A DNA stretch of 63,771 bases, the filler included, from Collodictyon triciliatum (lineage: Eukaryota): the NCBI GenBank assembly GCA_043381765.1. It is 5 parts of 5 records of this genome, joined end to end, with 100 filler letters (N's around TTAATTAATTAA, not from the genome) between each part and the next. Parts side by side here need not be neighbours in the genome. Positions count along the whole stretch, not along the records: positions 13,973 to 44,858 come from JBHJMP010000475.1; 4 more parts are not named here. One strand, written 5' to 3'. Both the position numbers and the translations under genes were made by a program. The notes under the pieces are model-generated. The model saw nothing but the letters and a program-made list of their open reading frames with translations. It did not search any database and was not told the DNA's origin. Position 1 is the stretch's first letter. Each line of letters begins with the position of its first letter. Positions 159 through 61,670 of this stretch are shown piece after piece.

Positions 159-3100
159 ATGGGCGATTCTGCCGACGCACTCGACTCGCTCCAGCGGCGG
201 ATCGCACAGCATCGCGAGACTCTTCAGCAGCTCGAATCGCGACTCAACGAGCCCATCCACGAGTCCCAAAGCACAAGTGCCTCTGCTCAAAGCCAACTGC
301 TCGACAAAGCTGCCCACTCTCCTCACACGCTCACTCATGGGATTCCAACCTACCTCGAAAGTGGCTGCAAAAACTCGCCCGTCACATCAGACTCGCTCGA
401 TCCCGCTGCTTTGCAGACTCCACGTTCGGAGCGGCTTCTTCCGCGCTACGACTTTGAGGCTGCCGCGATATGGCCCGCCCTTGCAGACGGCATCGACCTG
501 CCAATCAATCGCCGGGCAACGCCCAGCAAAGCGCATTATATGGCTACAAACGCAGCCGAAACGCCAAGAAAGTCTGCCGCGCCGAAACAACACCCGGCCT
601 CGAAGCCCAATACCAATACGCATGCAGACCAGAACGGACGGTCGGCCGGTGTTGGAGTGGAAAGATACCGAGTCGCGCGCGGCAAGGGTGGTACAAAGGG
701 TCGTGTGCCTATGCATGACTCGTTGAGTGAAGAGAGCTCTGGAGAGAACTGGGTCAAGCATATCACGGATGAATATGATGGTTTCATCCATCGCCCATGC
801 AGGCGGGAGTCTCCGGTTCAAACTTTGGTGATTGAATGGGCTCTTGTTCTAAGTTTTGCACTGAGCTTTCCCTTGATTGATTGATTGATTGATTGATTGA
901 TCGATTAGTTGATAGCTTGTTCTTTTTTAGATTGTTACTGTGAAAAAAATATTATATCTGTTGATAATATTATTGATGAGATTATTATTCTTTCTTCTTA
1001 TTTTTTTTTATCTTTTGATCACAGAAAGCACGGCCTAAGCATCTAATTAGCAGCATGGATATAACCGCAAAAATGGTTTGTTTGTTTGTTTGTTTTTGAA
1101 GTAGGGAATTTCTCTGTATCACAAAGAGCATTAAATGAATAAGAACATCCTTGTAAAATGTTTCTCGTCCTGTTGTTTAAATGCTTCATTAAATGGACGT
1201 ACCGAAAAAAATACCAATTGAATATAATGATTTGTCAACAAATTACACTATGAATAAATATCCCACGATCGAAGCGGTCAATGTGGGACGAAGATAAAAA
1301 GAAGATTAAAAAACTGGAGGCTAAATGCAAATCATATGCTTTGAGATTGAAAGCACAGTCCAATTTTATCAAGGTAAATGTTAACCTTTCTGCATTATGG
1401 GAAAATTATTCATTTTTTGTTCGATTTTTTTTTTTTGTCATTTATGAGTATATAAGACCTATTTTCATGGTGCAAGAGTGAAACATTTCATAACCACATT
1501 TAGTATCTTTCATTTCTCATCGGCATATAAAAGTAATTACCAAAGGTATTTATGTATTCATAATTACAGGCCCTCCAAAACCAAATAAGGCTAAAAGACG
1601 ATGTACATGCCCAACTTCAAGAGAAAATCGAATCAAAAACACGATTTATCAAAGCAAAGAAACAAACCGATAAACTGGCAAAATCTGCACACAAAGCCAA
1701 GTTCAAAGGTGAAATATGCACAATGACATAACAAACGGGATAGCCAACTTATGAAGAGAATTTCATCTTCTTATGGTCAATATACTGAATATCCAAATTC
1801 GTGATACAAATAACTAAAGAATCATGTGTTATTTTGTGCATTTGGGGATGATAATTATTCATTAAATAATTGTGAAATTAACAGTCGACAAAGAAATTGT
1901 CCAGCTCCGACAGGAAAACCAACGACTCCAGCAAAAATTCATCGACGTTGGTGACGAAATAAATTTTTTGAGGTGTCATGAGCAAAGACTAAAGGACTCT
2001 TGTCAGCAAGCTGTCGATGTTTGACTCCTTTCTATGTTTATTTTTAATTCGATGAACCCGAATATATCATAACCGCTGTTTTCTGAGAATTTGATTTAAG
2101 CTTTAGTTATAAATAAACTAAAAGTATTCCGATTTCTTTTTTAAGTATGCATATCAAGCAGTAATTCTCAGTTGGGAATTTTACCCTTTCCTTTCAATGT
2201 AGTTGTCATATTATATTTGAAAAAAAAATCATTTAAATAGCCCTTTTTATTCATCCTAGGCTGCGAATAGCATGGAATCATTTTATCGGCAGGCATTGAA
2301 GCATGCAAAGGACATGGAATCGAAAGTGGTAGATTTAAAAAACCAACTATCGACCCACCAAGAGAAGTCAACCGAGTTGAACTCTAGGATGGAAGAAGTA
2401 TTCCACGAGAATCACACTTGCTTTCGCAATATTATATTATTCATTCTAATCGCTCTCCAGTCATTGATTTCCTCAACAAAGGATTCGGAAGATAATTAAA
2501 CCCATGACCCTTTTTTTTCTAAAAAAAAAATAATTAATTAACATTGGATACAGCTTATGGTCGAAAATGGGCGATTAAAAGGCGAGATTCACTTGAAAGA
2601 ACAGCATTCTCGGGGTTTAGAGGCTATGGCGTCTAACTTACGGGTATGTGTATGAGATATATGTACATATCAAAACATTTGGTATGAATCTCATGATCGA
2701 TATTTCTGTCATATTCGTTTGAGGCTATGAGAAAGATAAATAAATAGCAGCTATGTAAACATTTTTTTTCGGCTCAACATGACAATATCAAGATTACACC
2801 TTACCATGGTAAAACTGCTATGCTAATTCAAAAATATATCATAGCACGAAATTAACCTTCGTGATGGAGAGTCAGATGAATTGAAGCGCAAACTCTTTGA
2901 TATTACGAAACAAGCTGCCGCATTAGACCGACAACACCAAGAGAAACACAAAGGAAATCCACGCTCTATTGACCCTGGGATTTTGTCACCCCCGCCTGAA
3001 ATTGATGATGCCGTAAATATTGAAGACTCCACATCCAGTGTAGACCTTAGCTCCTCTCTTTTATCGAGCCATCGCCTATATTCTGTTGCAGGTTGGGTAA

Positions 3101-3403
3101 AGCGGATAGACCCTCCTATTAAACAATCTATAATTTTTACTTCAGCACAAAGTATTTTTGTGATGATTCTTACTTTTACAAATCGATGACAAATTTTTAA
3201 CGAATTGGTTTATAAATACTGTAGTCTGTCATTATTTTAATATGATTTCGTGATTTTTGTTTTTTGTAGTTTTTTGTAGTTTTTTGTAGTTTTTTTGTTT
3301 TCCCAACTAAAATTAGCCAATAATTTGTCCAGCAAGAAAACGAAGGGATGATTCTGTGTCAACCTCGTTGTCGTCATTGAAAGACAGCCTCGGGACTAAG
3401 TAA
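159..3403 (+). CDS. Multi-exon (about 9 exons) hypothetical coiled-coil protein
   Basis: Splicing at GT-AG sites gives one continuous frame: MGDSADALDSLQRRIAQH...ESP|KARPKHLISSMDITAKM|RSMWDEDKKKIKKLEAKCKSYALRLKAQSNFIK|ALQNQIRLKDDV...|DKEIVQLRQENQRLQQK...|...|HEINLRDGESDELKRKL...|RKRRDDSVSTSLSSLKDSLGTK* (TAA 3401-3403). Heptad-rich; no family recognised. Confidence 0.75.
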
Positions 3404-13872: not shown

Positions 13873-13972
13873 NNNNNNNNNNNNNNNNNNNNNNNNNNNN
13901 NNNNNNNNNNNNNNNNTTAATTAATTAANNNNNNNNNNNNNNNNNNNNNNNNNNNNNNNNNNNNNNNNNNNN
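13873..13972. other. Artificial scaffold-joining spacer N44-TTAATTAATTAA-N44
   Basis: Six-frame stop linker flanked symmetrically by Ns; the same structure recurs four times in the window. Confidence 0.95.
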
Positions 13973-14393: not shown

Positions 14394-15802
<1,409 letters not shown>

Positions 15803-41926: not shown

Positions 41927-44673
41927 TTACTTTTCAGACCTTTTCAAGAAATGAAGTTCGTTGGTTGCGCCTGTCAGGTCGGTGTATGTCATCGTATTGA
42001 AATCAACCTGGAGGTGGGATATCGCAGCGGGTAGACAGAGTATTAGAGATGGGGATGAGAAAATTGATTGCCAAAGATATAGATTTTGGAAAATGACTAA
42101 ACGATTCAATTTGACTGGACTTTGGGCCATATCACTGACGTGCGATTAGTTCGTAGCAATATTCACTCACACTCACACTCGCACTCACACTCACACTCAC
42201 ACTCACACTCACACTCACACTCACACTCACACTCACACTCACACTCACACTCACACTCACACTCACACTCACACTCACACTCACACACTAACTCAAATAA
42301 AAGAGATGAAGAAAGAAACAGAGAAAAAAAGAGCAATAAGATGTCTCCTATTCGATGCAAATTATATGAAGCTAAATGTACCGAACAGTGCACACTCCCC
42401 ATTTTGATAGTTACACCTCCATCCAAAGGAGCCTTCATCCACGCCTGCGAATTGGGTACAATTATATATAGTCGAGGTAATGGAATTTAGTTGCAAAAAG
42501 GGCGAGTTTAGTTGCTGTAAAGATGAACAAACTTTAAAGGCTGCATCACACAGAGATGAGACGAGAGGACTCAAGACTTTCCATGTTGGTCTTGTGGAGT
42601 TTCCTGAGTCTATGGTGCAGATTCTCCACACCTGGGTAATGACCAGCTAGGTAAGTATCATTCCTACTTCAAGTTGGTAGAATTGTGCTAACTTTAAATC
42701 TAAAAGTTCAAGGAGTGAACGAATCTGCCGCAAGATTACCCTCAGTCATAGTGCAAAGGGAATGTGACAAGTTTTTGTTCATTTAATTTCAATCAGATAT
42801 ATATTTTGAACATACACCATCTGACTGAAGGCTTTTCCTGAATTTCACCGCCATATCTTTGCTTCCGAGATTTCCATGAGGCTCCCATGTATTGTGACTC
42901 TCGGGATAATATTTCCACTTGATAAAGTAATGGTGCGATGACTGTATTGATTTATTTTTTTTTATTGTAAGATTGGTAAATTTAAATGGTCATTAAAAAG
43001 AAAGGGGCGGGTTATTCTATTTCCATTGTTGTGAAGTAGTGCAGGTAATCCTAAAATATCCGCGATGATATTTAATAAGGATTTCACCTTGACTAGCTTA
43101 GCGCCTCGAATCTCCTCGACTTCAAACTCGTCACCCACAGGCGAACCCTTCTGGACATCGGAATAGTTCAATAATGGGGTATTCAATTAGTCTTGTTTGT
43201 TTGTTTGTTTGTTTGTTTGTTTGTTTGTTTGTTTGTTTGTTTGTTTGTTTGTTTGTTTGTTTGTTTGTTTTATTGCTTCTTCACTTCATCTAATGAATTA
43301 GTGTGCTCTAAAAGAAAATGAACAAACAGTGGATGGTACAGATTTTGGGGCCTTCTTTTTTCCAGCAGATTCCGGGGCCTTCTTTTTTCCAGCAACTACT
43401 TCCTTGGGGGGATTCTTTGGCTTGGGAGTCTTCTGTACTTTAGCTGCAGACACTTTAGACCTCCTGCATATCACAAATGAATTAAGCATCACAAAGTAAT
43501 AGAGAACTAACGGATTGAATCCCGTCCACTTAGTAAATCCGGAAATCAACCTCCAAATGAAGATACCATTTTTTGAAGAAAAAAAAGTTGAAGGCAACAC
43601 TTTTCTGAATATGAATAGAATAGAGCCATTGCAACGGTGATATCACAAACGCACGAAAAATATATGAGCGATAGTAGATGGGAAAAATGTATAATTGAGG
43701 ATATCCGCATTCACGTGAGACTCACGAGCGCAAAGAGGAAGATGGGGGACCGAGAGCCTCCGTAGCGAGTTCGGCGATTCTGGATGAGGAGCGAGACGGT
43801 GTGGCCGGTGTAGTTGGAGTAGCCGGGGTCGGAGTCGTCTGGGGCTGTGATGGAGTAGCAGGAATGCGTGGTGTGGCCGGAGCCTTTGTCGGTGTTGACG
43901 GCACTGAGTTTGGCTGACTGGACGCAGCTCTCTTTGGCTGGACACGAGGTTGTGATGTTGGTTGTGATGTTGGTTGTGATGTTGGTTGTGATGTTGGTTG
44001 TGATGTTGGTTGTGATGACGATTGTGATTGCGTTTGTTTCTGATATGATGGTTACGATTTGATCAGCGTTGTGTCGTTAATTACACGTATATATGTATAT
44101 GTATATGTATCATAGCCATTTGATGTTGAATGATAATAAATCATCTTGGAGTTTAAGAAAGGCTCGACTGTCAAGCAGTTGCTATGTGAACGTACGGGTT
44201 TGCGGGAGCGAGCGTGTTGACGCTTTTAAGGAGGCACATAAATGAGATGATTAAATTATATTTTATTATTTTAGGCAGAAGTCATGAGGGAGGGACATTC
44301 GTTTGAGATTATATAGATCATATGAGAAAGTGTAAAATGTTTTGTCAGTGAGATTATAATGAGAAAGGATTAAAATAAACCATTTTTGCAGCCATTAATG
44401 CTTGTTTATTTTGGGGTGTGCTTTGCTCTAGAACAGAAAAAAAAAGCTCTGTTGAATTAATAATATATAAGAGTGGCTGTTCGATCATGATTCGGAGGGA
44501 CCACATGTTCGATCCAAGAGGCGAAAGGCAGGGGTTTTTGAAGGCAGCATGAAAAAGAGAGAAAGATCGTGAGAGATTTCTTGGCGTCTCCAGAGCGCAA
44601 CAATTGTTTTGGGAGTGACACCAAGTTTTGTTTTACACAAAAACATTCGGCACCGCGTTTGGGACTCTGTCAT
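41927..44673 (-). CDS. SQ/TP-rich N-terminus + chromodomain + C-terminal WWE-like domain protein (5' end uncertain)
   Basis: Phase-0 exons 43088-43150, 42816-42941, 42533-42646, 42382-42444 and 41927-42007 give [40 protein letters not shown] (chromodomain), then VWRIC...[53 protein letters not shown] (WWE-like). Confidence 0.75.
42163..42289. repeat. (CACACT)n intronic microsatellite
   Basis: Read directly from the sequence. Confidence 0.95.
43193..43270. repeat. (GTTT)n intronic microsatellite
   Basis: Read directly from the sequence. Confidence 0.95.
43948..44017 (-). repeat. Coding 12-nt repeat encoding (TSQP) about 6 times
   Basis: ACATCACAACCA tandem on the minus strand, in frame with the chromo-WWE gene exon. 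Confidence 0.8.
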
Positions 44674-44858
44674 TTGGCTGATCACGAAATCAACACAAAG
44701 TCTCGTGGAAACAGCAGCGAGTGTTTTTGTATTTTTTTTTTGTTTTTTTTGTTTTTTTGTTTTTTTGTTTTTTTGTTTTTTTGTTTTTTTGTTTTTTTGT
44801 TTTTTTGTTTTTTTGTTTTTTTGTTTTTTTGTTTTTTGTTTTTGTTTTTTTGTTTTTG

Positions 44859-44958
44859 NNNNNNNNNNNNNNNNNNNNNNNNNNNNNNNNNNNNNNNNNN
44901 NNTTAATTAATTAANNNNNNNNNNNNNNNNNNNNNNNNNNNNNNNNNNNNNNNNNNNN
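44859..44958. other. Artificial scaffold-joining spacer
   Basis: N44-TTAATTAATTAA-N44. Confidence 0.95.
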
Positions 44959-45068: not shown

Positions 45069-46270
45069 TCAGAGGTTTGGGAAGAAGTCAGCCCCTGCTG
45101 CAAACCTGACGGCTAAGTCACCAATTGGAAAGATATCTAGCCTGCAGAGCGTAAACATAAGAAACATGTGAACCTGAAATGATTTTTCAGTACATATTAG
45201 AAAACGAACATAAAAAAATGTGTAAAAATTCGAATCATGACCTGGTTCATATATAGAAAACAATCATTATCGATTATTATGAGAGATGAAAGCGTCCATA
45301 CACTCCAAACCCCTATACCCTTCACTCTTGTCAAAACGCTAATTATATCTTCGTCAGACATATCAGCAAAAGCTGCCTGGTCCGGGGGTATTGTCCCATT
45401 TGTGCAATTTTCCGCGAGACTTTTCATGTAGGACGTCTGTGGTGTTGTAAAAAAAAAAATGTAGAAGTAATACACTTTTTTTCAATAATAGTTATATCTA
45501 CCATCCAGGCATCAATATTTATCAGATTTCATTTCTATGCAATTTTCTTTTGCCGATAAAAAAAAACCTTCTGACTAGACAGCCCGCACGAACGTAGCGC
45601 TGATTCAGGTGCAGTTAAAACAAAGCTTGGGTCGGGAAACTGGACAAAGATCAAGTTTTTTTAATGAAGGATTTTTCAAAAAATATATGTAAAAAAAAAA
45701 ACAGAGAAATATGCAGCATGATTAGGAGTGCAATGGAGCTAAATGGCTGAAAACCACATCGTGTCCCTCTTGCAGTTGCGCAAAACGGCCGAGTATAGTC
45801 CTGCACCCAGTAGGTAGAGTGAGGATAAACGAGCTGAAGATTAACTGCACTGCAAAAGTAAAATAGAATATCTTGAGGAATCGGGGCTCGCAAACATTTC
45901 TGCTTTTGCGCTCACATTGTTATAGTTCTCGCACTTCCACCTCAAATGCAGTGGGTTGGCAGTCATTAAAAGAAGAGCAAACAAATAGATGGATGGATGG
46001 AATTGGCGAAATCGACTTGGTGACCAACCTTGCCGCCTTCACTGCCAGCTGCTGATATATTATCGACTTTGCCATGCAACCGAATACACTTCTTTGCGCA
46101 GGATGGACACTTTCATCAGGTGACTCTTGTGCAGAACGCGCAAACGGCGGCTCCCCAAACTCATCTCGCAGGGCAGAGAACCGCGAGTCCAGAGCCACGA
46201 GCCGCTCGGTTGGCGACATTACAGGCGTTTTTATGGAGGGCGAATGTTTTGCATCTTCCTTCCCGCTCAT
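45069..46270 (-). CDS. DNA-3-methyladenine glycosylase, AlkA/Mag1 (HhH-GPD) family; probably 3' partial
   Basis: FGCMAKSIIYQQLAVKAAR|TILGRF...|FPDPSFVL...LRSCGLSSQK|TSYMKSLA...LTRVKGIGVWS|VHMFLMFTLCRLDIFPIGDLAVR, containing the HhH motif and catalytic Asp. Confidence 0.92.
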
Positions 46271-46793
46271 TTGCGTGCGTGCTCCTTGAGTGTGACTGTG
46301 GGAGAATTCGCTGTTCTTAAGTTATGCTTTTTCTTTTTCTTCTCTTTGTTTATGTTTATGTTTTATTTTTTTAATGCGTGTTGCTTGGCGATGACAGCCG
46401 GTCTTATCCGGTTATATATACGCTTTTCCATGTGGAACGGAGTAAGAATTACAAAACTGGAAGACGTGGTTCCATGTTTATGTTCCTCGGTTGTTTGTTT
46501 TTTCCTATGTTTTTTTTCCATTGGTTATTCTTTGGTGTTTATGTTTTTTTATTCGTTCTGTTATTCGGTGTGGTTTCTGCTGGGATTCGGCTCCGGGGTT
46601 GAGTGGGATTGTCGGAGTCCGAGTGCGGGTTCACCATGCTTCGCAGTTGCTTAACTGGATTTTGCCTCGCTATGGTGTTCAGGTTGAGTCAGAAGGGCGC
46701 ACTTTTGAGAAATCGCGATATTTAAACACGAGGCGTTATGTCAGAAGCTGTTTGGATGCGAAAGAGATTGCCATCGAGCGTTTGGGGTTGATA

Positions 46794-49880: not shown

Positions 49881-52800
49881 GACCATACATTTAGCCATCA
49901 CTTTTCTATCCATCCTTTTTTTTTTTTTTTTGTAATTATAAAAGTGGACAGAGAAAATACTTAAAACTTAGTGGCTATTTATATTCATCAACCAAATCAT
50001 CATAATGAGCGAGAAGGCGTCTTATTTCAGAATATTTATATTCGGGTTTAAATATTAGAAGGCTATGACTTACATTCTGAGTAAATGTGGCGACATCTTT
50101 GCAGGCGGCTGCGACTTGCTGCTTTGAAAAGTTATCTGTGTTTTGAGATTTTGCTTTGTTGACGAGATTAGACGTGGCCTTGGAAACTGCCTTTGCTGCC
50201 AACTTGAGTTGGTTTCGGAGAGCCTCGGATTTAATCTTGTCAATTTGGGAGGTAGCGGCCTGGACGACTCTTCTTGTGCTGGAATTGAGCTCCTCGATGG
50301 CGTGGTCGACCTGCAATGCAGGAGATGGAATCCGGCGTGGAGAACAATATCAACAAATAATAAAACATGTATAAAGTGTGATAATCCACCATCAGGTAAA
50401 CTCTGGAAATCGTTTACTCGGTAGCTTGGATGATAAAGGAGACAAATATAATTTTCTCGCAAAAGGAAGTAATCAGCCTCAGTCGCACAAAAAGAAAAGA
50501 AAAGAAAAGAAAAGAAAAGAAAAGGGAATATTTCTAGAGTATCTATGTGCAAGTACGGAGAGAGAAAAGCAAAAAGATGGATGATAAAAGAAAAAGAAAA
50601 AGAAAAAGAAAAAGCAAAAAGATGGATGATAAAAAAAAAAGAAGCTAGTGAAACCTTTTCTGGGCTCTCATTGAGAGAGACCAGGACGCGGGAAGTAGCC
50701 GAAGCGAGACTTCCAGAGGCGTTTGCCACAGATGTTGTTGCAACGGCGAGGGACTTTGAGACGGATCGAGAATGGGTGCGGCCCCCCTCGGGGACTTCGT
50801 CAGTGTAGCCAGCAGCGACCAAAGCTGCGCCTTCAGCGAGAGCACTTGCGACGGGGTCATCGGGGACGAGTTCCTCCTCGACTTTAGCCAAGGGGACTGT
50901 GGAGCAGAGCTCTGCAGCGGCGATGACTGCGTTGTGCGAGGTGAGGACGTTGCGAGAGGGAGTTGCATGGCTGAATGTGGACTGAGCAGCGGAGACGAGG
51001 TTCTTTACGGAGGAGCAAACGGCGCTTGCGGCGGAGGAGAGCTTGATGCGAGAGTCGTGGTCGATGCCGTTCTTGAGGACGGACTTTGCGGCGGGGACGA
51101 GCTGGGAGGTGGCGGAGGCGATGGACTTTGCGGCAAGGGTGAGATGCTCGGCAAGCTCCGGGTTTGTGATGGAGGAGACCTTCTCGTTGACGAGGACAAC
51201 CATTTCATTTGCAGAGAGGGCCAGCTTCTTTGCGGCCTCCATCATGCTGGGCTCGTCGCCCTCGACGGCGTTGAGGAGCTGGGTCATGCTTGCGGCGACA
51301 GCATCGGTCTGGACAATGAGCTCGTCCATGTCCTTCTGGTCGCTGCCAGCAGCACGGTAGGTGGCGACGAGCTTGGAGGTTGTCTCGTTCGCGGCGGCAA
51401 TGAGGGAGGCGAGCTTCTGGGAGACGGCGGGGGTGTTGCAGGTGGCCATGATGGAGCGGGCGTTCTCGATGAGACTGGAGACGGCGACGCTGGCGGAGCG
51501 GGCCGTGTGGACGAGGCTGGCGGTGTAAGCGTTCTGAGGCTCGGTGGTCTTGAGCCGAGCAGCATGCAAAGAGGCGACGGCCTCGTTTGCGGCGCGCAAA
51601 GAAGCGGTGAATGCGTGCTGGACAGTGGGCGGGGCCAGAACGACCGCCTCCTGGGCAAAGGCCTGCAGCCCGCCGACAGAGGACTCGAACTTTGCCGAGG
51701 ACTCGACAAGATCCTCCTTGAGCTGGACCTCGAGCAGGACGGAGCCGAGCTCGGTGACCTCCCGGATGACATCCTTGATGCGGTCCTGGCTCTGCTCGCT
51801 GTCCTGCAGGGCGCCGACGTCCTGGCCCAGGCCGATGACGGAGGCAATGAGGTCGTTGACGCGCTCGGCGGTCTGCTGCAGCTGGGCTCGCTTGGCCTCG
51901 TCGGTGGTGCGGACGGCGGCGGAGCGCGCGGCAGAGACAAGCTTTGCGGACGAGGCGGCGACGCTGTTGACGGAGGCCATGGTTGCGGTTGCGGAGGTCT
52001 GGCTGATGATGGAGGTCATGAGGCCGTTGGAGGCGTCGTCGATGTCCTTGAGCGCGCCCTGCAGCTCCTCGCGCACAATGTGTGTGGGGATGGACATCAT
52101 GGCGCTCTTGGAGGTGGAGACGAAGCCGGCTATGGAGTCGGCCACGGCCTTTGTGGCAAAGGCGACGAGCTGCTGCTGCGCAGGGTCGATGCGGGCGCCG
52201 GGCGTGGCGGCGGCGGCGGCGTGCGTGGCGCCCACCAGGACGGCAACGCTGGAGCCCAGGGTCTTTGCGGCGGCAACGAGGCCGGCCTCCACAGCCGGGT
52301 CGTAGACGGCAACGGTGATGCGGTCGGCAGCCACCTTGGCCTGGTTGGACAGCTCGAGCAGGGCCACAGACGCAGCCTTGGCCGCCTGGACCACGCGCTC
52401 GGCAAGGACCGGGTCGCTGGTCTGGGCCGTGGACTTGGACGAGGCCAGCAGGCGGGCGCAGCAGTCGGAGACGGTCTTTGCGGCGCCGACAACGGCCTGC
52501 GAGTGCTTTGCGCCCGGCGAGACGACGGCCAGCGCGGCGCCCTGCTGCACAAGCGTGGCCTGCCGCACCTCGCCTGCAGACAGCATCATGGACGTGGCTG
52601 CGGCGATGTTCTTTGCGGCCGCCACGCGCGCAGGCTGGTCGTTGCGGCCGTGCGCCGCCGCAAGCTGCGAGGATGCCGTGGCCATCAGCTGGACCGCCTC
52701 AATCAGCTTGTGGTTGGTCGCCCCGCCCGTGCCCTGCAGCACGCACGCCGCACGCGCCGCTGACATCATCCCCGCGCACGAGGTCAGGATGCTGCGGGTG

Positions 52801-55800
52801 GACAGGATGGCCTGCGATGCATCCCGTGTGCTCACAAGAACCGCCGTCTCCGACGCAAGCGTCTCGCCTGCCTGTGCAAGCTCCAGCGGTGCGTCCTCCG
52901 GCTCCACAATCCGCACTGCCGGCAGCTCCACCTTCTTGCCGTGCACCTCCGCCACAGACGCCGTCACGGTGCTCAGTGCCGCCTGCATCATGCTCTCCGT
53001 CGCGTTGTACTCGGTCAGCACAGAAGACTTGCTCGACACCTCCTGGTAGATCACGTCCATCTCGCTCAGGATTGTGGCGCACTGCGCGACCGTCCCTTCC
53101 GTGCTCACAGACCCCACCGCTCCGGCCACGCTCATCTGCTGCCCAAATGCGGCGCTCCCTTGTCGGGGCGAAAGCGGGCCTCCGATTCCGCTCGCCTGCT
53201 GCTGTGTGCTCAGCGCCCCGCTCATCGCCGTGATGGCCTGTGCGCGCACTGCTCCCACAACTTCCTCTGTTGCAATCATCTCTTCCTCCTGCAGGTGTCG
53301 CACGGGGGCGTTGCCCTCTGGATTTTGGTGTGATTGTGTGATTGTGTGATTGTGTGATTGTGTGATTGTGTGATTGTGTGATTGTGTGATTGTGTGATTG
53401 TGTGATTGTGTGATTGTGTGATTGTGTGATTGTGTGATTGTGTNNNNNNNNNNNNNNNNNNNNNNNNNNNNNNNNNNNNNNNNNNNNNNNNNNNNNNNNN
53501 NNNNNNNNNNNNNNNNNNNNNNNNNNNNNNNNNNNNNNNNNNNTATGTGTGTGTGATTATGTGTGTGTGATTATGTGTGTGTGATTATGTGTGTGTGATT
53601 ATGTGTGTGATTATGTGTGTGTGATTATGTGTGTGTGATTATGTGTGTGTGATTATGTGTGTGTGATTATGTGTGTGTGATTATGTGTGTCATTGTGTGT
53701 GTGATTATGTGTGTCATTGTGTGATCGTTTGTTTTTTAACGAAGGAGATGCACGCACATACATATGCATACACAGAATACGAAAGAAAGTGTAATTCTAT
53801 GGAAAGATATTATGCTCTTTCCTCTCTCTTATTTTCTCTGACATGCTTGCTCCCAATATTTTGTCAAACCTCGTCTCTTTTGCAAGATAATATCGATGTA
53901 TCCAGCAATAAGCTGGGAAATGGCATCTCCTTCTGTTGTTTGGACAACTACATATTCGTCTTCGTAGTCTCCAAAGTCCATTGTGAATGTTCCGGGATTT
54001 GCGGCCCATCGACGGAGATGGGTCAATGGATAGTGAGAAATGACAGTCTTTGAGGAGCAAAAGAAATGAAAACGATCGTGGGAAAATGAGTAGCGGTTCA
54101 ATTTTAGTGGGTAGCAAATCTCCTGCCTAATTATTTTTAAGATGTATGCTATTTTCGCGCATATACTTTTCAAAGAGTAGGATTTTACCCGTGTTTCACC
54201 ATCGAGTCTGATGATAGAGTCTCGAGTAATACCCAACAGGCGATTCATTATTTTCTTGTCTTTCTTTGTCTTTTCCTGAAACAATTAAAATATTAATGAT
54301 GAAATTTTGACATTCGCATTCATTAAAATTAGCAAAAGAAATAGAAAATGATTTGCTCTTTTTTCGATCTAAAGGAGGGTATCATCAAAAAAAAAAAATA
54401 AGAGTGATGTTTGTTCCTTTTTTTCAATACATCTATTAGGAAGAGGAATATGGAGAGATAGAGATAGAGATAGAGATAGAGATAGAGATAGAGATAGAGA
54501 TAGAGATAGAGATAGAGATAGAGATAGAGATAGAGATAGAGATAGAGATAGAGATAGAGATAGAGATAAAGAAAGGAAGAAAATATAAGTGATCAATTTG
54601 CGTTATTTTTACACGGACCTTAATATTGAAGAACGTGATACCATAAGTTTTGATTTGGCGACAATTTTGCACATAGCGATACTTTGCATGAACATCAGAG
54701 ACACCGCTCAATTTTCGGTGTTCGGCAAATATCTCCTTATCGATGTTTCGCGCCTTTCGGAAGGTCATGGGTAGAATCTCTTCTATTCTATATTGTGATA
54801 TTTAGCCATGGCAATAGACTGATGTCCTCCAATTTTTTAAAAGTCCTTTTTATCTTTACATGGGCTTGTGTTTTACAAATGCATATAATATTTCCATATG
54901 ACAATTCTTTTTCATTTTCTACCACTTTTTTTCCCGATCATTTTCTTCTGTTAGATATAACATAGGAAAGAGGTTATCTTACTTGATGGTCCCAATTTTG
55001 TGCTTGTTTGGGTTGTGATTTCCATATGTGACTTGAAGCTGTAAGCCAGCCAATTTGATCGCCTCTTCCATACTGCATCGAAGCTCTTCTTGCAGAATTT
55101 GTTTGGTAGCCTGGTGATGTGATTTTCACTTCATGATTTGTGTTCGTCAAGGATACAAGTTTATGCATCTCACAGTTGTCATTCAAGACGTGCAAGACAT
55201 ATACATAAATAGATGTGGCGGAGTAGGTATAGGGTGCTCCAGAACCTGGACGTAGAGGAGATGCAACTCAAGAGGATCACTGGCATCGATGTTTGCGTCG
55301 CTGAAAAAGAATTTCTTCTTCATCAACAATACTGACTCAGCAGGGATTCCCTGTTCGTGTAGAGAAGTGGTGGGCTTGAGCCAGTCAGCTGTATCGCCAT
55401 AGTCATGTTAGATTACTGAAGACAACGCATACGAGAAAGGGGAGGAAAACAAAACGATTAAGCAGAGAAAAAGAAGAACTGCTTTATAGAATTATTGACG
55501 TCTCATGATTAATTTCATAAAGTGTGAAGCAAAACTTGTGGGAAAAATTAAAAAAATTAATCATTTCCTCAAAAAAAAAAAAAAGGAAAGGGATGTGTTT
55601 TAACCTGTTTAATTCTTTTATATGTGATTATTTTTCAGTATACTTGAACACGGAAGTGCTAGGAAAGAGGGTGCTTATGAGTGACTAACCGTCCTTTCTT
55701 TCTTCGATGAGGGAGAACTCGTCGGGGTTTCCAAGGCCGATCTTTTTAGCAATTTGTCGCACGACATCGACTACAGGCTGGCTTTCATCAACAATGACTG

Positions 55801-56301: not shown

Positions 56302-56401
56302 NNNNNNNNNNNNNNNNNNNNNNNNNNNNNNNNNNNNNNNNNNNNTTAATTAATTAANNNNNNNNNNNNNNNNNNNNNNNNNNNNNNNNNNNNNNNNNNN
56401 N
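56302..56401. other. Artificial scaffold-joining spacer
   Basis: N44-TTAATTAATTAA-N44. Confidence 0.95.
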
Positions 56402-56455: not shown

Positions 56456-59400
56456 CTTGAGACCAATCATTTCTTTTATTTTTTTTATCTTCAGTTCGAA
56501 AATAATTATTTTGCAAAAAATGATTAATTATATCACAAACCCTTGCTTTTTGAATCAAGCGACTCAAAAGATCCCCTAAAGGTGTTGATGGAATATCTTG
56601 TGTTTGTAGAGCATCTTTTCCGGAAATCTTAAAATTGTTAAAAACGATCACAATTCATATTCATGAGGCAATATTCGCGTCCTAATATTAAACTAAGCTA
56701 GAAAGTAAAAGAAAGAAGAATATATCATATTTAGTTTAGTTTATTTGCGAAAACTTTGCCCAATACCTGGTGGAGGCAACAAACTTTTCTCAATTTGAGG
56801 TAAGGGTCAAAAAACTTTGGTGCTATATTCCTATGAGAATGTAATCCATGTGTGTGGTAAATAAAATGATATGAAAATTAAAGCCTGGAGAACGAAATAA
56901 CAACGCATGATGCATCACTATAACTCCTTGTGGATTATGCATATAAAAGTGACAATAACTACATGGCCTACCTATCAATTACTGTTTCAGGTCTTTTATA
57001 CTTTTCAAAAAGTCTGAAGGCCTCAGCGGCACAAACCTATGTATTATTAAAAATATAGAATCCCTTAACATATATCTAAATCATTTCCTTATTTTTTCAT
57101 GGAAGCTGTGAGGTTGGACACTTACTGTCAACATCTTTCGGTAGTTAAACATTTCGGGAGCTGAAAACTTTACCATATGTACCTTATTCTCCTATATATA
57201 AATTGAAGGATAAAGCAAGAAATATTGTTATCAAAGTTTAGAAACTATTTTTCATTAAAAAAAAAAAAGCAAAGTCTTCATCATGGTGTGTAGTGTTCAT
57301 GCCAAACCGCCGATGCATATTCGAGCTGCTCGCTCACCATCTCCTAAAATATATTTATTTTTATTAAGAAAACAGCGAGCAAATGTAAAACGAAATAGTA
57401 ATGATAATCAATAAATTGGCAATCAGCTGGTCGACATAAAATTAAAGATGAGTTGGCTGAAAAAAAAATAATAAATTGAACAAAATCAAATGCAGCTAAC
57501 AGGGAGCAAACCTTGCTTGTTCTCCATAAAACACTTCTCAAGTATTGTAAATAAACCGACTGAGTGAGATGGCAACCTTAAATAGACAAGTGTTGATAAT
57601 GGTATTTTATGGTGAATTAAAAAGGAAATAATAATTTTAGTGGAATCTAAGAAATAAAAAATGGCAGAAATGCTGATTATCAAAATATTTCATGATATTC
57701 GAAACACTGATAATAAAAAAAAAAAAGCGGTACGTTGTTCGAAAGGGTCTTGAATAAATCTCTTCCAGTCTGATGAGGAACTGAATCGCCCGGGATCAAT
57801 AATTGATGTGAAAGCTGCAATTTTTTTTAAATAATATGTCACAATTTGAAGAGGATTCTGGTACCAAAAAAAATGAATAGAAATACTCAATAACCTGGTA
57901 TTGAAAAGCATTTTCCAGAATAAATTTTCGCTCAATATTGTAACGAATAGTTTTCATTTATTTATTTATTTGAACATATTAAAACTATGGTATGAATATC
58001 ACTGTGCAGGTCCATGAAGTTTTTTCGAATTGGAGTTCCCGTGATGCACCATACATATCTTGAAGTGAGCTGCGATATGATGAAAAATATTGTTGAATAG
58101 TGTCCTGCGTATCCCCCAATCATCAATTAGATAAAATTTTCTTTTTTTATTTTATTTATTATCACGCATATTTTTAGTGTTTTTCTCTTGAATCCGTAAA
58201 GATTAGAACCTACGGAATCTTTATGAATTCACTAACCTGTTGCGTCATTTGAAACAACTTTAAGCTCCCGTCGACCAATTGAGATTCGTCATAGATGACT
58301 CTCCACCATTTTATGAACGGAAGCAACGTAAGCGGTTCTAAATATTTCTTCTCCTTTCTTGGGCTCTTTCTCTTAAAACAAAAGTATGCCAAAACGGAAA
58401 TGACAAAGTGAGATGAAGATGCAACACATGCCTTTTTGTTGTTGTTTTTTAAAAGAAGGAAATACCGCGTTTTTTTTTTAATATTAATGATTACACATAT
58501 CTCGGTGAAAGGCAAATCGCTGCGAAGGACGTTGTATGTGGTAATTATAATATCGTATTTGCATATTTCATCCACATTCAACATCGACTTTGGTTTTTTT
58601 ATGCCGTCATAGAATAAACAGGAAAAGCTTTCACAGTTGATATGCTTTGTTATTTCACTTCTCCACTAGATAGAGTTGTGTTTTATTATATGTATGCTTT
58701 AAAGTGAAATTTCAAGATGGCTGATATATTTTAAATATTATTCATCTTTTAAAAAATGTATGTATGTAAAGTACTTGAACTGATATGGACTCTGGAGTTA
58801 CGATTAGGGTAGTTTTAACTGCAATTATTGGGTGACATGCCTTGCAGTAGAATCTTTCAAGTACAAGACATCAGTTACACACATATATAAATATTTAGAA
58901 AGGAAGAAGTGATTATAGCTTGAAAGAAATGTAAAGGAAACTTAAGTGGCCAGTAACTATGGCATAATCATTATATAAAGGAATGACCTCAACGATATAG
59001 AATGGTTTTAAAATGTCCTATATAAGAATTATATTTGGCTTACTTGTTACGTATTACAACGCCGTGGGCTGAAGCGCAACTATCATGATACTTATGACGA
59101 CAATTCTCACAAAATCTTACATCAGCGGATTCTTTTTCACTCGTGTTTCCACAACAAATATAGATATGCCCATCTAAAGGTAATATTAAGAGAAAAATTA
59201 ATATTCCGACATTAGAACGCAATCAGATACTCTTTAGCATCGTCTAATCGGTTGCAACAACGATGATATAAAAAAAAACTAATGGTATAAAAAGACAACT
59301 CAAACCAACATCGGAGTAAAATAAAAAGAAAAGAAATAAGCGGACCAGATAGATGGTTCGACTCTGCGCTGTGAATAACTTTACATCGAACATCAACAGT

Positions 59401-61570: not shown

Positions 61571-61670
61571 NNNNNNNNNNNNNNNNNNNNNNNNNNNNNN
61601 NNNNNNNNNNNNNNTTAATTAATTAANNNNNNNNNNNNNNNNNNNNNNNNNNNNNNNNNNNNNNNNNNNN
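61571..61670. other. Artificial scaffold-joining spacer
   Basis: N44-TTAATTAATTAA-N44. Confidence 0.95.

Follow-up and report, generated by a model that had tools for sequence, protein, structure and literature searches.

An expressed, intron-rich gene encoding an HP1-type chromodomain protein with an 80-residue C-terminal module in Collodictyon triciliatum

Gene structure and transcript evidence

The window, meaning the whole stretch of 63,771 nucleotides of Collodictyon triciliatum DNA (assembly GCA_043381765.1) that was analysed, harbours on its minus strand a hidden spliced gene encoding a chromodomain that is followed directly by a C-terminal tail of 80 residues. The gene is real, expressed and rich in introns, and its product is a small chromatin reader of the HP1 type. 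All five peptide strings of the original prediction, which had described five consecutive GT-AG exons, were located on this strand, at the positions given in Table 1 except for the third string, which spans 42533-42646. Each of the five exons is preceded by AG and trailed by GT, and the final exon terminates in TAA. Counted from a candidate exon rich in Ser, Thr, Gln and Pro (the TSQP exon), the full model comprises 7 exons, 882 nt and 293 residues, with an open frame that is unbroken across all seven. The GC content of the exons is 0.41-0.55, compared to 0.29-0.41 for the introns. Every intron downstream of the lysine-rich exon is in phase 0, so that the frame of the chromodomain continues directly into the tail and then reaches TAA.

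Splicing of the gene has been analyzed with public sequencing runs. A word search revealed six runs with small shares of matching words, four of which (X1-X4, from three studies) were compared with the repeat-free stretch 42300-43190. The comparison was made with one assembled RNA contig per run, 151-285 nt in length; X2 is only presumed to be RNA. The contigs of X1 and X3 were at least 99% identical to the window, those of X2 and X4 95-99%. RNA cover was absent over the introns and at both ends of the compared stretch, an absence that carries no weight. Joints were found at 42444/42533 (X1 and X2), 42631/42816 (X4) and 42941/43088 (X3), and all three have CT..AC borders on the plus strand and hence GT..AG borders on the minus strand. 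Furthermore, the contigs of X1 and X2 have loose ends at 42380 that match 41976-42005 of the window, and the contig of X3 has a loose end at 43150 that matches 43328-43357. These matches indicate that 42007/42382 and 43150/43328 are joined as well. With five joints in total, RNA contigs support every junction between the lysine-rich exon and the stop codon. It had been laid down beforehand that the prediction would fall if RNA showed the chromodomain and the C-terminal exons apart; the RNA contigs show them joined, and this ground for refutation is thereby excluded.

The RNA contigs also corrected one border. The acceptor of the third of the five exons lies at 42631, 15 nt downstream of 42646 and in frame with it, so that the exon begins with VWRIC and the residues LVITQ are intronic. 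The five GT-AG exons of the original prediction thus all exist on the minus strand and are joined in RNA, but the third measures 99 nt instead of 114. Both acceptors, being in frame with each other, could be usable; only 42631 was seen. The sole variant in the first exon of the tail is 42563 G>A in X2, which is synonymous (CTC to CTT, Leu).

Table 1 Features of the chromodomain gene (positions in the window)
Feature	Position	Strand	Basis
Candidate TSQP exon (Ser/Thr/Gln/Pro-rich), 314 nt	43726..44039	-	Frame and splice sites; link to gene inferred
Lysine-rich basic exon, 136 nt	43328..43463	-	3' border by X3 RNA contig; 5' border inferred from CAG acceptor
First chromodomain strand and first cage aromatic (Phe), 63 nt	43088..43150	-	Joint 42941/43088 in X3
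Chromodomain core and its C-terminal helix, 126 nt	42816..42941	-	PF00385; RNA joints at both sides
First third of C-terminal module (VWRIC...), 99 nt	42533..42631	-	Joints 42631/42816 (X4), 42444/42533 (X1, X2)
Middle of C-terminal module, 63 nt	42382..42444	-	RNA-contig joints
Last coding exon, 78 nt + TAA	41927..42007	-	X1/X2 loose ends match 41976-42005
(CACTCA) microsatellite, 20.5 copies, within last intron	42164..42286	n/a	
(TTGT) microsatellite, 19.5 copies, in intron between lysine-rich and 63-nt exons	43193..43270	n/a	

The chromodomain

The 126-nt exon alone (42 residues) was recognized as a chromodomain by Pfam (PF00385, Chromo), with 37.3 bits against a gathering cut-off of 25.1 and an E value of 2.5e-9. 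The 23 PDB sequences matched by the same exon at E ≤ 1e-3 are chromodomains without exception. The best matches were those of Drosophila HP1, 6mha (E 2.3e-8) and 1kna (3.6e-8), followed by CBX5, SUV39H1, CBX1/3, LHP1, CHD1 and CBX2. When aligned with 6mha and 1kna, KWKYY falls on KWKGY of HP1 and NTWEP on NTWEP, and the cage Trp and Tyr are aligned. The chromodomain of the original prediction, described there as having an apparently intact aromatic cage, is supported in that PF00385 scores above its gathering threshold and KWKYY lies on the HP1 motif.

Metagenome contigs of JGI/ENA yielded seven chromodomain loci (L001-L007). The identity of their chromodomains to that of the window is 50-55% over ~49 residues in L001-L005 and L007, while L006 is weaker, with 33% over 103 columns. 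The first strand, DEFEVEEI, encoded by the 63-nt exon, aligns with DIFEVEKI in L001-L005 and with YIVEDI in L007, and the first cage position (the Phe of DEFEVE) is aromatic, F or Y, in the metagenome relatives. The positions of Phe, Trp and Tyr are taken by us, from HP1 structures, to be those of the methyl-lysine cage, and all three aromatic residues of this cage appear to be in place. By analogy with its relatives, the chromodomain would read methyl-lysine on histone H3, of the K9me2/3 type.

Five of the metagenome loci, L001-L005, carry at ~2230-3130 (locus coordinates) a nearly identical chromodomain without introns, 54-55% identical to that of the window. The single match of the chromodomain exon among longer proteins, P0003, was rejected as a relative of the whole protein: it is 42% identical and belongs to a triple-chromodomain protein without the tail.

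The C-terminal module

Solved WWE domains consist of six strands forming a half-barrel and one capping helix, and they measure ~80-90 residues, the constructs of Table S1 having 79-90 (PMC11269756). The tail, with its 80 residues, is within this size range. Its composition is globular-like, with alternating hydrophobics and few low-complexity runs. The hydrophobic-moment profile is helix-like and amphipathic at residues ~15-38 and displays strand-like alternation at residues 1-3, 39-47 and 52-58, which would be loosely compatible with a beta-beta-alpha-beta layout. When the register is set by eye to the WWE consensus, the two Trp appear as W2 and W17, and Asp29 takes the position where Glu would be expected. 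By the same eye comparison the tail presumably follows the WWE order of W...W...D-A-A-F helix...VTI...VDFxxM...TG...basic strand.

The residues expected to contact the ligand appear to differ. In the by-eye register, as we take it, the adenine Gln is replaced by Tyr, the phosphate Tyr by Cys or His and the equivalent of Arg163 by Asn. In the WWE domain of RNF146, Gln153 forms a hydrogen bond with adenine, and Arg163 and a Tyr bind phosphate; these contacts are described as highly conserved (PMC11269756, PMC10877565). It is conceivable, at somewhat less than even odds, that the tail is a true, highly diverged WWE fold fused directly to an HP1-type chromodomain. A canonical ADP-ribose binder is unlikely, and if the tail does have the WWE fold, it probably does not bind ADP-ribose in the canonical way.

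The tail is split across exons of 33, 21 and 26 residues, and it was searched exon by exon. HMMER filters drop weak partial matches, so that the single-exon Pfam scans of the tail are insensitive. Within this limited sensitivity, the chromoshadow domain (PF01393) had no match at E ≤ 10 in the C-terminal exons. Two sub-threshold Pfam matches, NfeD in the first chromodomain exon and DUF2790 in the last exon of the tail, were discarded as chance matches. A 40-residue query spanning the 99-nt exon, run among the longer proteins of an index of 5.8 billion clusters, gave 2 candidates, none of them at E ≤ 1. A scan of JGI metagenomes for the tail gave 590 pattern matches, of which 0 were confirmed. 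Such negatives are weak, because the queries had only 26-40 residues.

The 5' part of the gene

The candidate TSQP exon has an acceptor, CAG/AAA, at 44039 and a donor, CTC/GTGAGT, at 43726, and the frame is kept into the lysine-rich exon. Its GC content is 0.55, and the only Pfam match is the PT (disordered) repeat with 29.6 bits. The 105 residues of the exon contain 5 TSQP, 8 SQP and 10 SQ/TQ motifs, and the SQ cluster is produced by a tandem repeat at 43948-44028, with a 12-nt unit present in 6.8 copies. About six copies of TSQP had been claimed; the cluster is real, and the count is five. SQ/TQ cluster domains, the target regions of ATM/ATR, are defined by at least 3 SQ/TQ per 100 residues, and the candidate TSQP exon falls within this definition. 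From its frame and splice sites it is plausible that the TSQP exon belongs to the gene, which would fuse an SQ cluster to the chromodomain.

Preceding the chromodomain, the lysine-rich exon encodes a segment of 45 residues with 14 K+R versus 2 D+E and a pI of 10.7. A tandem duplication of 27 nt within this exon (43339-43394, minus strand) encodes AGKKKAPES and AGKKKAPKS. As this duplication and the 12-nt repeat of the TSQP exon show, repeat expansion lengthens the N-terminal half of the protein.

The upper bound of 44673 originally given for the gene has no support, as no start codon was found. The open frame of the TSQP exon contains no ATG. Several mini-exons of the type ATG...GT could lie upstream, such as MAAKM at 44395-44381, none of them supported. 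Alternatively, the intron that precedes the lysine-rich exon contains an ATG in frame, at 43489, from which a protein of ~196 residues without the SQ cluster could be translated. The contig spacer N44-TTAATTAATTAA-N44 at 44859-44958 lies 820 nt upstream of the TSQP exon, and the first exon could be located beyond it. Just upstream of the gene a T-rich array, (T7G)n with ~15.6 copies, occupies 44724-44857 and reaches the contig end; this array may have caused the assembly break.

Interpretation

The locus is best explained, with a probability of roughly 75%, as an expressed multi-exon gene encoding an HP1-type chromodomain and an orphan C-terminal module of 80 residues that is WWE-like by eye. 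It would be a nuclear gene of an AT-rich, talin-bearing eukaryote, whose transcripts are present in freshwater and aquatic metatranscriptomes. The protein would possibly start with a disordered N-terminus rich in Ser/Thr-Gln/Pro, followed by a lysine-rich linker that resembles a DNA-binding or nuclear-localisation segment and may add unspecific affinity for DNA/RNA. The chromodomain, with its cage of Phe, Trp and Tyr, would then bind the methylated lysine of histone H3. The module directly behind it occupies the place of the HP1 hinge and chromoshadow domain and may serve as the effector or partner-binding end of the protein.

Several findings weigh against this explanation. The WWE family (PF02825) had 0 matches at E ≤ 10 when the three C-terminal exons were scanned singly, and phmmer searches of PDB with the first and last exons of the tail likewise gave 0 at E ≤ 10. 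The ESM Atlas returned nothing usable for the 33-residue exon; its matches for the last exon, a hypothetical protein and a lipocalin-like cluster at 0.76-0.81, were under the lead threshold and were rejected. In a representative library of 1.84 billion proteins, the 33-residue exon had 3 matches at E ≤ 1e-3, which were rejected as well, all being tandem-repeat proteins without WWE (one of the SEA-domain mucin type and two repeat arrays, with scores that were summed over repeats or came from a single repeat unit). Furthermore, the tail is absent after the chromodomain in all 7 metagenome loci. No relative of the tail was found in these searches, so that there is no conservation evidence for a folded domain, and no statistical test ties the tail to WWE or any other family. 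The RNA support consists of assembled contigs at depths of 2.5-6 and not of raw reads, and the coding region is not spanned whole by any single contig. The stretch used for the RNA comparison, 42300-43190, ends short of the junction between the TSQP and lysine-rich exons; this junction and the start codon are without RNA support. Finally, methyl-lysine binding is deduced from family membership alone.

Other explanations concern mainly the nature of the tail. One of them sees the protein as a dual reader: its tail would be a true WWE domain capable of binding poly- or iso-ADP-ribose, its chromodomain would bind methylated histone, and heterochromatin marks would in this way be coupled to PARP or damage signalling. 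The motif order seen by eye and the length of the tail fit the WWE domain as described in PMC11269756, and WWE domains are known from Amoebozoa and choanoflagellates (PMC4245714), where in Amoebozoa too they are paired with PARP, U-box, macro and RRM modules. The 10 SQ/TQ motifs in the candidate N-terminal exon would also suit such a role. Nevertheless, the dual reader is unlikely. No search with single tail exons gave a WWE match, and the SQ cluster stems from a microsatellite-like 12-nt repeat in a repeat-filled genome, its link with the gene being putative. In the by-eye alignment with the WWE consensus, moreover, Tyr presumably stands for the adenine Gln, Asn for the equivalent of Arg163 and Asp for Glu. 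Because the SQ cluster is tied to the gene only indirectly and tests lend WWE no support, it is speculation to assign the protein to ADP-ribose or damage signalling.

There is a sizeable chance, although below one half, that the tail has no relation to WWE and is an orphan domain specific to its lineage, acting in dimerisation or partner docking as a functional analogue of the chromoshadow domain. The tail directly follows the chromodomain helix, which is the site of the effector end in HP1-family proteins, and its first exon has no relative among the 1.84 billion representatives or, for the 40-residue query, in the index of 5.8 billion clusters; a short motif likeness over 80 residues is possible by chance. 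The order of W/W/acidic helix/VDFxxM/TG is fairly specific, however, and queries of 26-40 residues miss remote homology, so that the negatives carry little weight in favour of an orphan as well. The chromoshadow domain is equally without a match in the single-exon Pfam scans. Very unlikely is a tail without function, either a fast-evolving or disordered extension or part of a gene copy in decay, which might for instance have originated from the chromodomain of a chromovirus. No orthologue was found, hence there is no evidence for purifying selection; the genome around the gene is rich in repeats, and the nearest environmental chromodomains (L001-L005, 54-55% identity) could be transposon-borne. 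Yet transcripts of the gene with correct splicing come from 3 independent studies, its frame is intact over 7 exons, and the composition of the tail is that of a globular segment. The best matches of the chromodomain are of the HP1 type and not of the integrase type. No long frame adjoins the gene among the window frames of at least 130 residues, and no transposon family occurs in the Pfam-sampled frames. The listed and Pfam-sampled frames around the gene include neither reverse transcriptase nor integrase, which makes a chromovirus origin unlikely.

HP1-type readers normally work via a dimer of the chromoshadow domain. An expressed HP1-type reader that has kept the chromodomain while its effector end was swapped for an unrelated module of 80 residues would represent another wiring of methyl-lysine reading to downstream function. 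If the tail has the WWE fold, this would be the first chromo-WWE architecture found in the literature searched; among the papers listed by full-text search, judged from titles and the first parts of abstracts, none describes one. The chromoshadow domain of a heterochromatin reader would then be replaced by a pocket of the nucleotide/ADP-ribose type, possibly retuned to another ligand, and the protein would give direct access to the crosstalk of heterochromatin marks with signals of the ADP-ribose type. Without the WWE fold, the tail would be of local interest only, as an orphan domain belonging to a single lineage that is poorly sampled.

Genomic context

The window is AT-rich, with a GC content of ~0.29-0.44 outside one block of 0.55, and microsatellites are abundant. 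Rfam gave no matches in the window. The spacer N44-TTAATTAATTAA-N44, with a stop in each of the six reading frames, is found at 13873-13972, 44859-44958, 56302-56401 and 61571-61670; these four spacers make the window a chain of contigs whose order does not imply that they are neighbours in the genome. Plain runs of N, 100 to ~460 bases in length, are present at seven further places in the window.

A talin gene is located at 50070-54284 on the minus strand, with an open frame of ~3.5 kb at 0.55 GC amid 0.29-0.44 GC. Its domains include I/LWEQ and talin IBS2B, and an exon at 53829-54284 encodes an IRS-type PTB domain. This gene lies on the same strand as the chromodomain gene, 6-10 kb off, across N gaps and a contig join. 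It places the host among the talin-bearing eukaryotes, which are generally known from Amoebozoa and Holozoa. The closest database relative of the talin is a EukProt transcript (P0007) with 68% identity. The sequenced relative of the host is thus at best moderately distant, and the lack of orthologues of the chromodomain gene is therefore uninformative.

Other open frames in the window include one at 15104-15802 (plus strand), in which Pfam recognises Methyltransf_11 (E 2.9e-11), a class I SAM-dependent methyltransferase domain. The fragment at 58210-58665 (minus strand) encodes part of a SNF2-related helicase domain (E 9.5e-7) and is probably one exon of a chromatin remodeller. Just past the contig spacer, two open frames on the minus strand (45197-45481 and 45920-46321) display by eye a motif like that of a helix-hairpin-helix glycosylase (VKGIGVWS) and IIYQQL; this likeness is unconfirmed, and neither frame had a Pfam match at E ≤ 0.01.

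Comparison with known systems

The chromodomain loci L001-L007 resemble the window protein in the chromodomain and are without the C-terminal module; in L007 an intron is present at a different position. WWE domains (PF02825; RNF146 3V3L and HUWE1 6MIW in PMC11269756) share with the tail a similar length and, as far as can be judged by eye, two Trp residues, an acidic residue within an amphipathic helix at the centre and then the pattern VDFxxM...TG...basic strand. Their known partners are PARP, RING, HECT or DDHD modules and are not known to include chromodomains (PMC11269756, PMC4245714). The tail has no HMM, PDB or Atlas match in the single-exon searches. Its residues by eye also depart from those of WWE domains, with presumed changes of Glu to Asp, Gln to Tyr and Arg to Asn.

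The chromodomains of SUV39H1 (3MTS) and CHD1 (2B2U) are significant matches as well, with E values of 1.1e-6 and 7.6e-5. Unlike these proteins, the window protein has no SET or helicase domain among the Pfam-scanned exons. The best matches are the chromodomains of HP1 (1KNA, 1KNE, 6MHA) and CBX1,3,5 (CBX5 3FDT), with E values of 2.3e-8 to 9.4e-7. Unlike HP1, no chromoshadow domain was detected in the window protein, of which the exons were scanned singly, and the C-terminal 80 residues are without a detectable relative. The basic segment precedes the chromodomain in the window protein, whereas in HP1 it follows the chromodomain as the hinge. HP1 and the window protein share the core YxxKWKxYxxxxNTWEP with the cage Trp and Tyr aligned, and both are small, basic and non-catalytic proteins.

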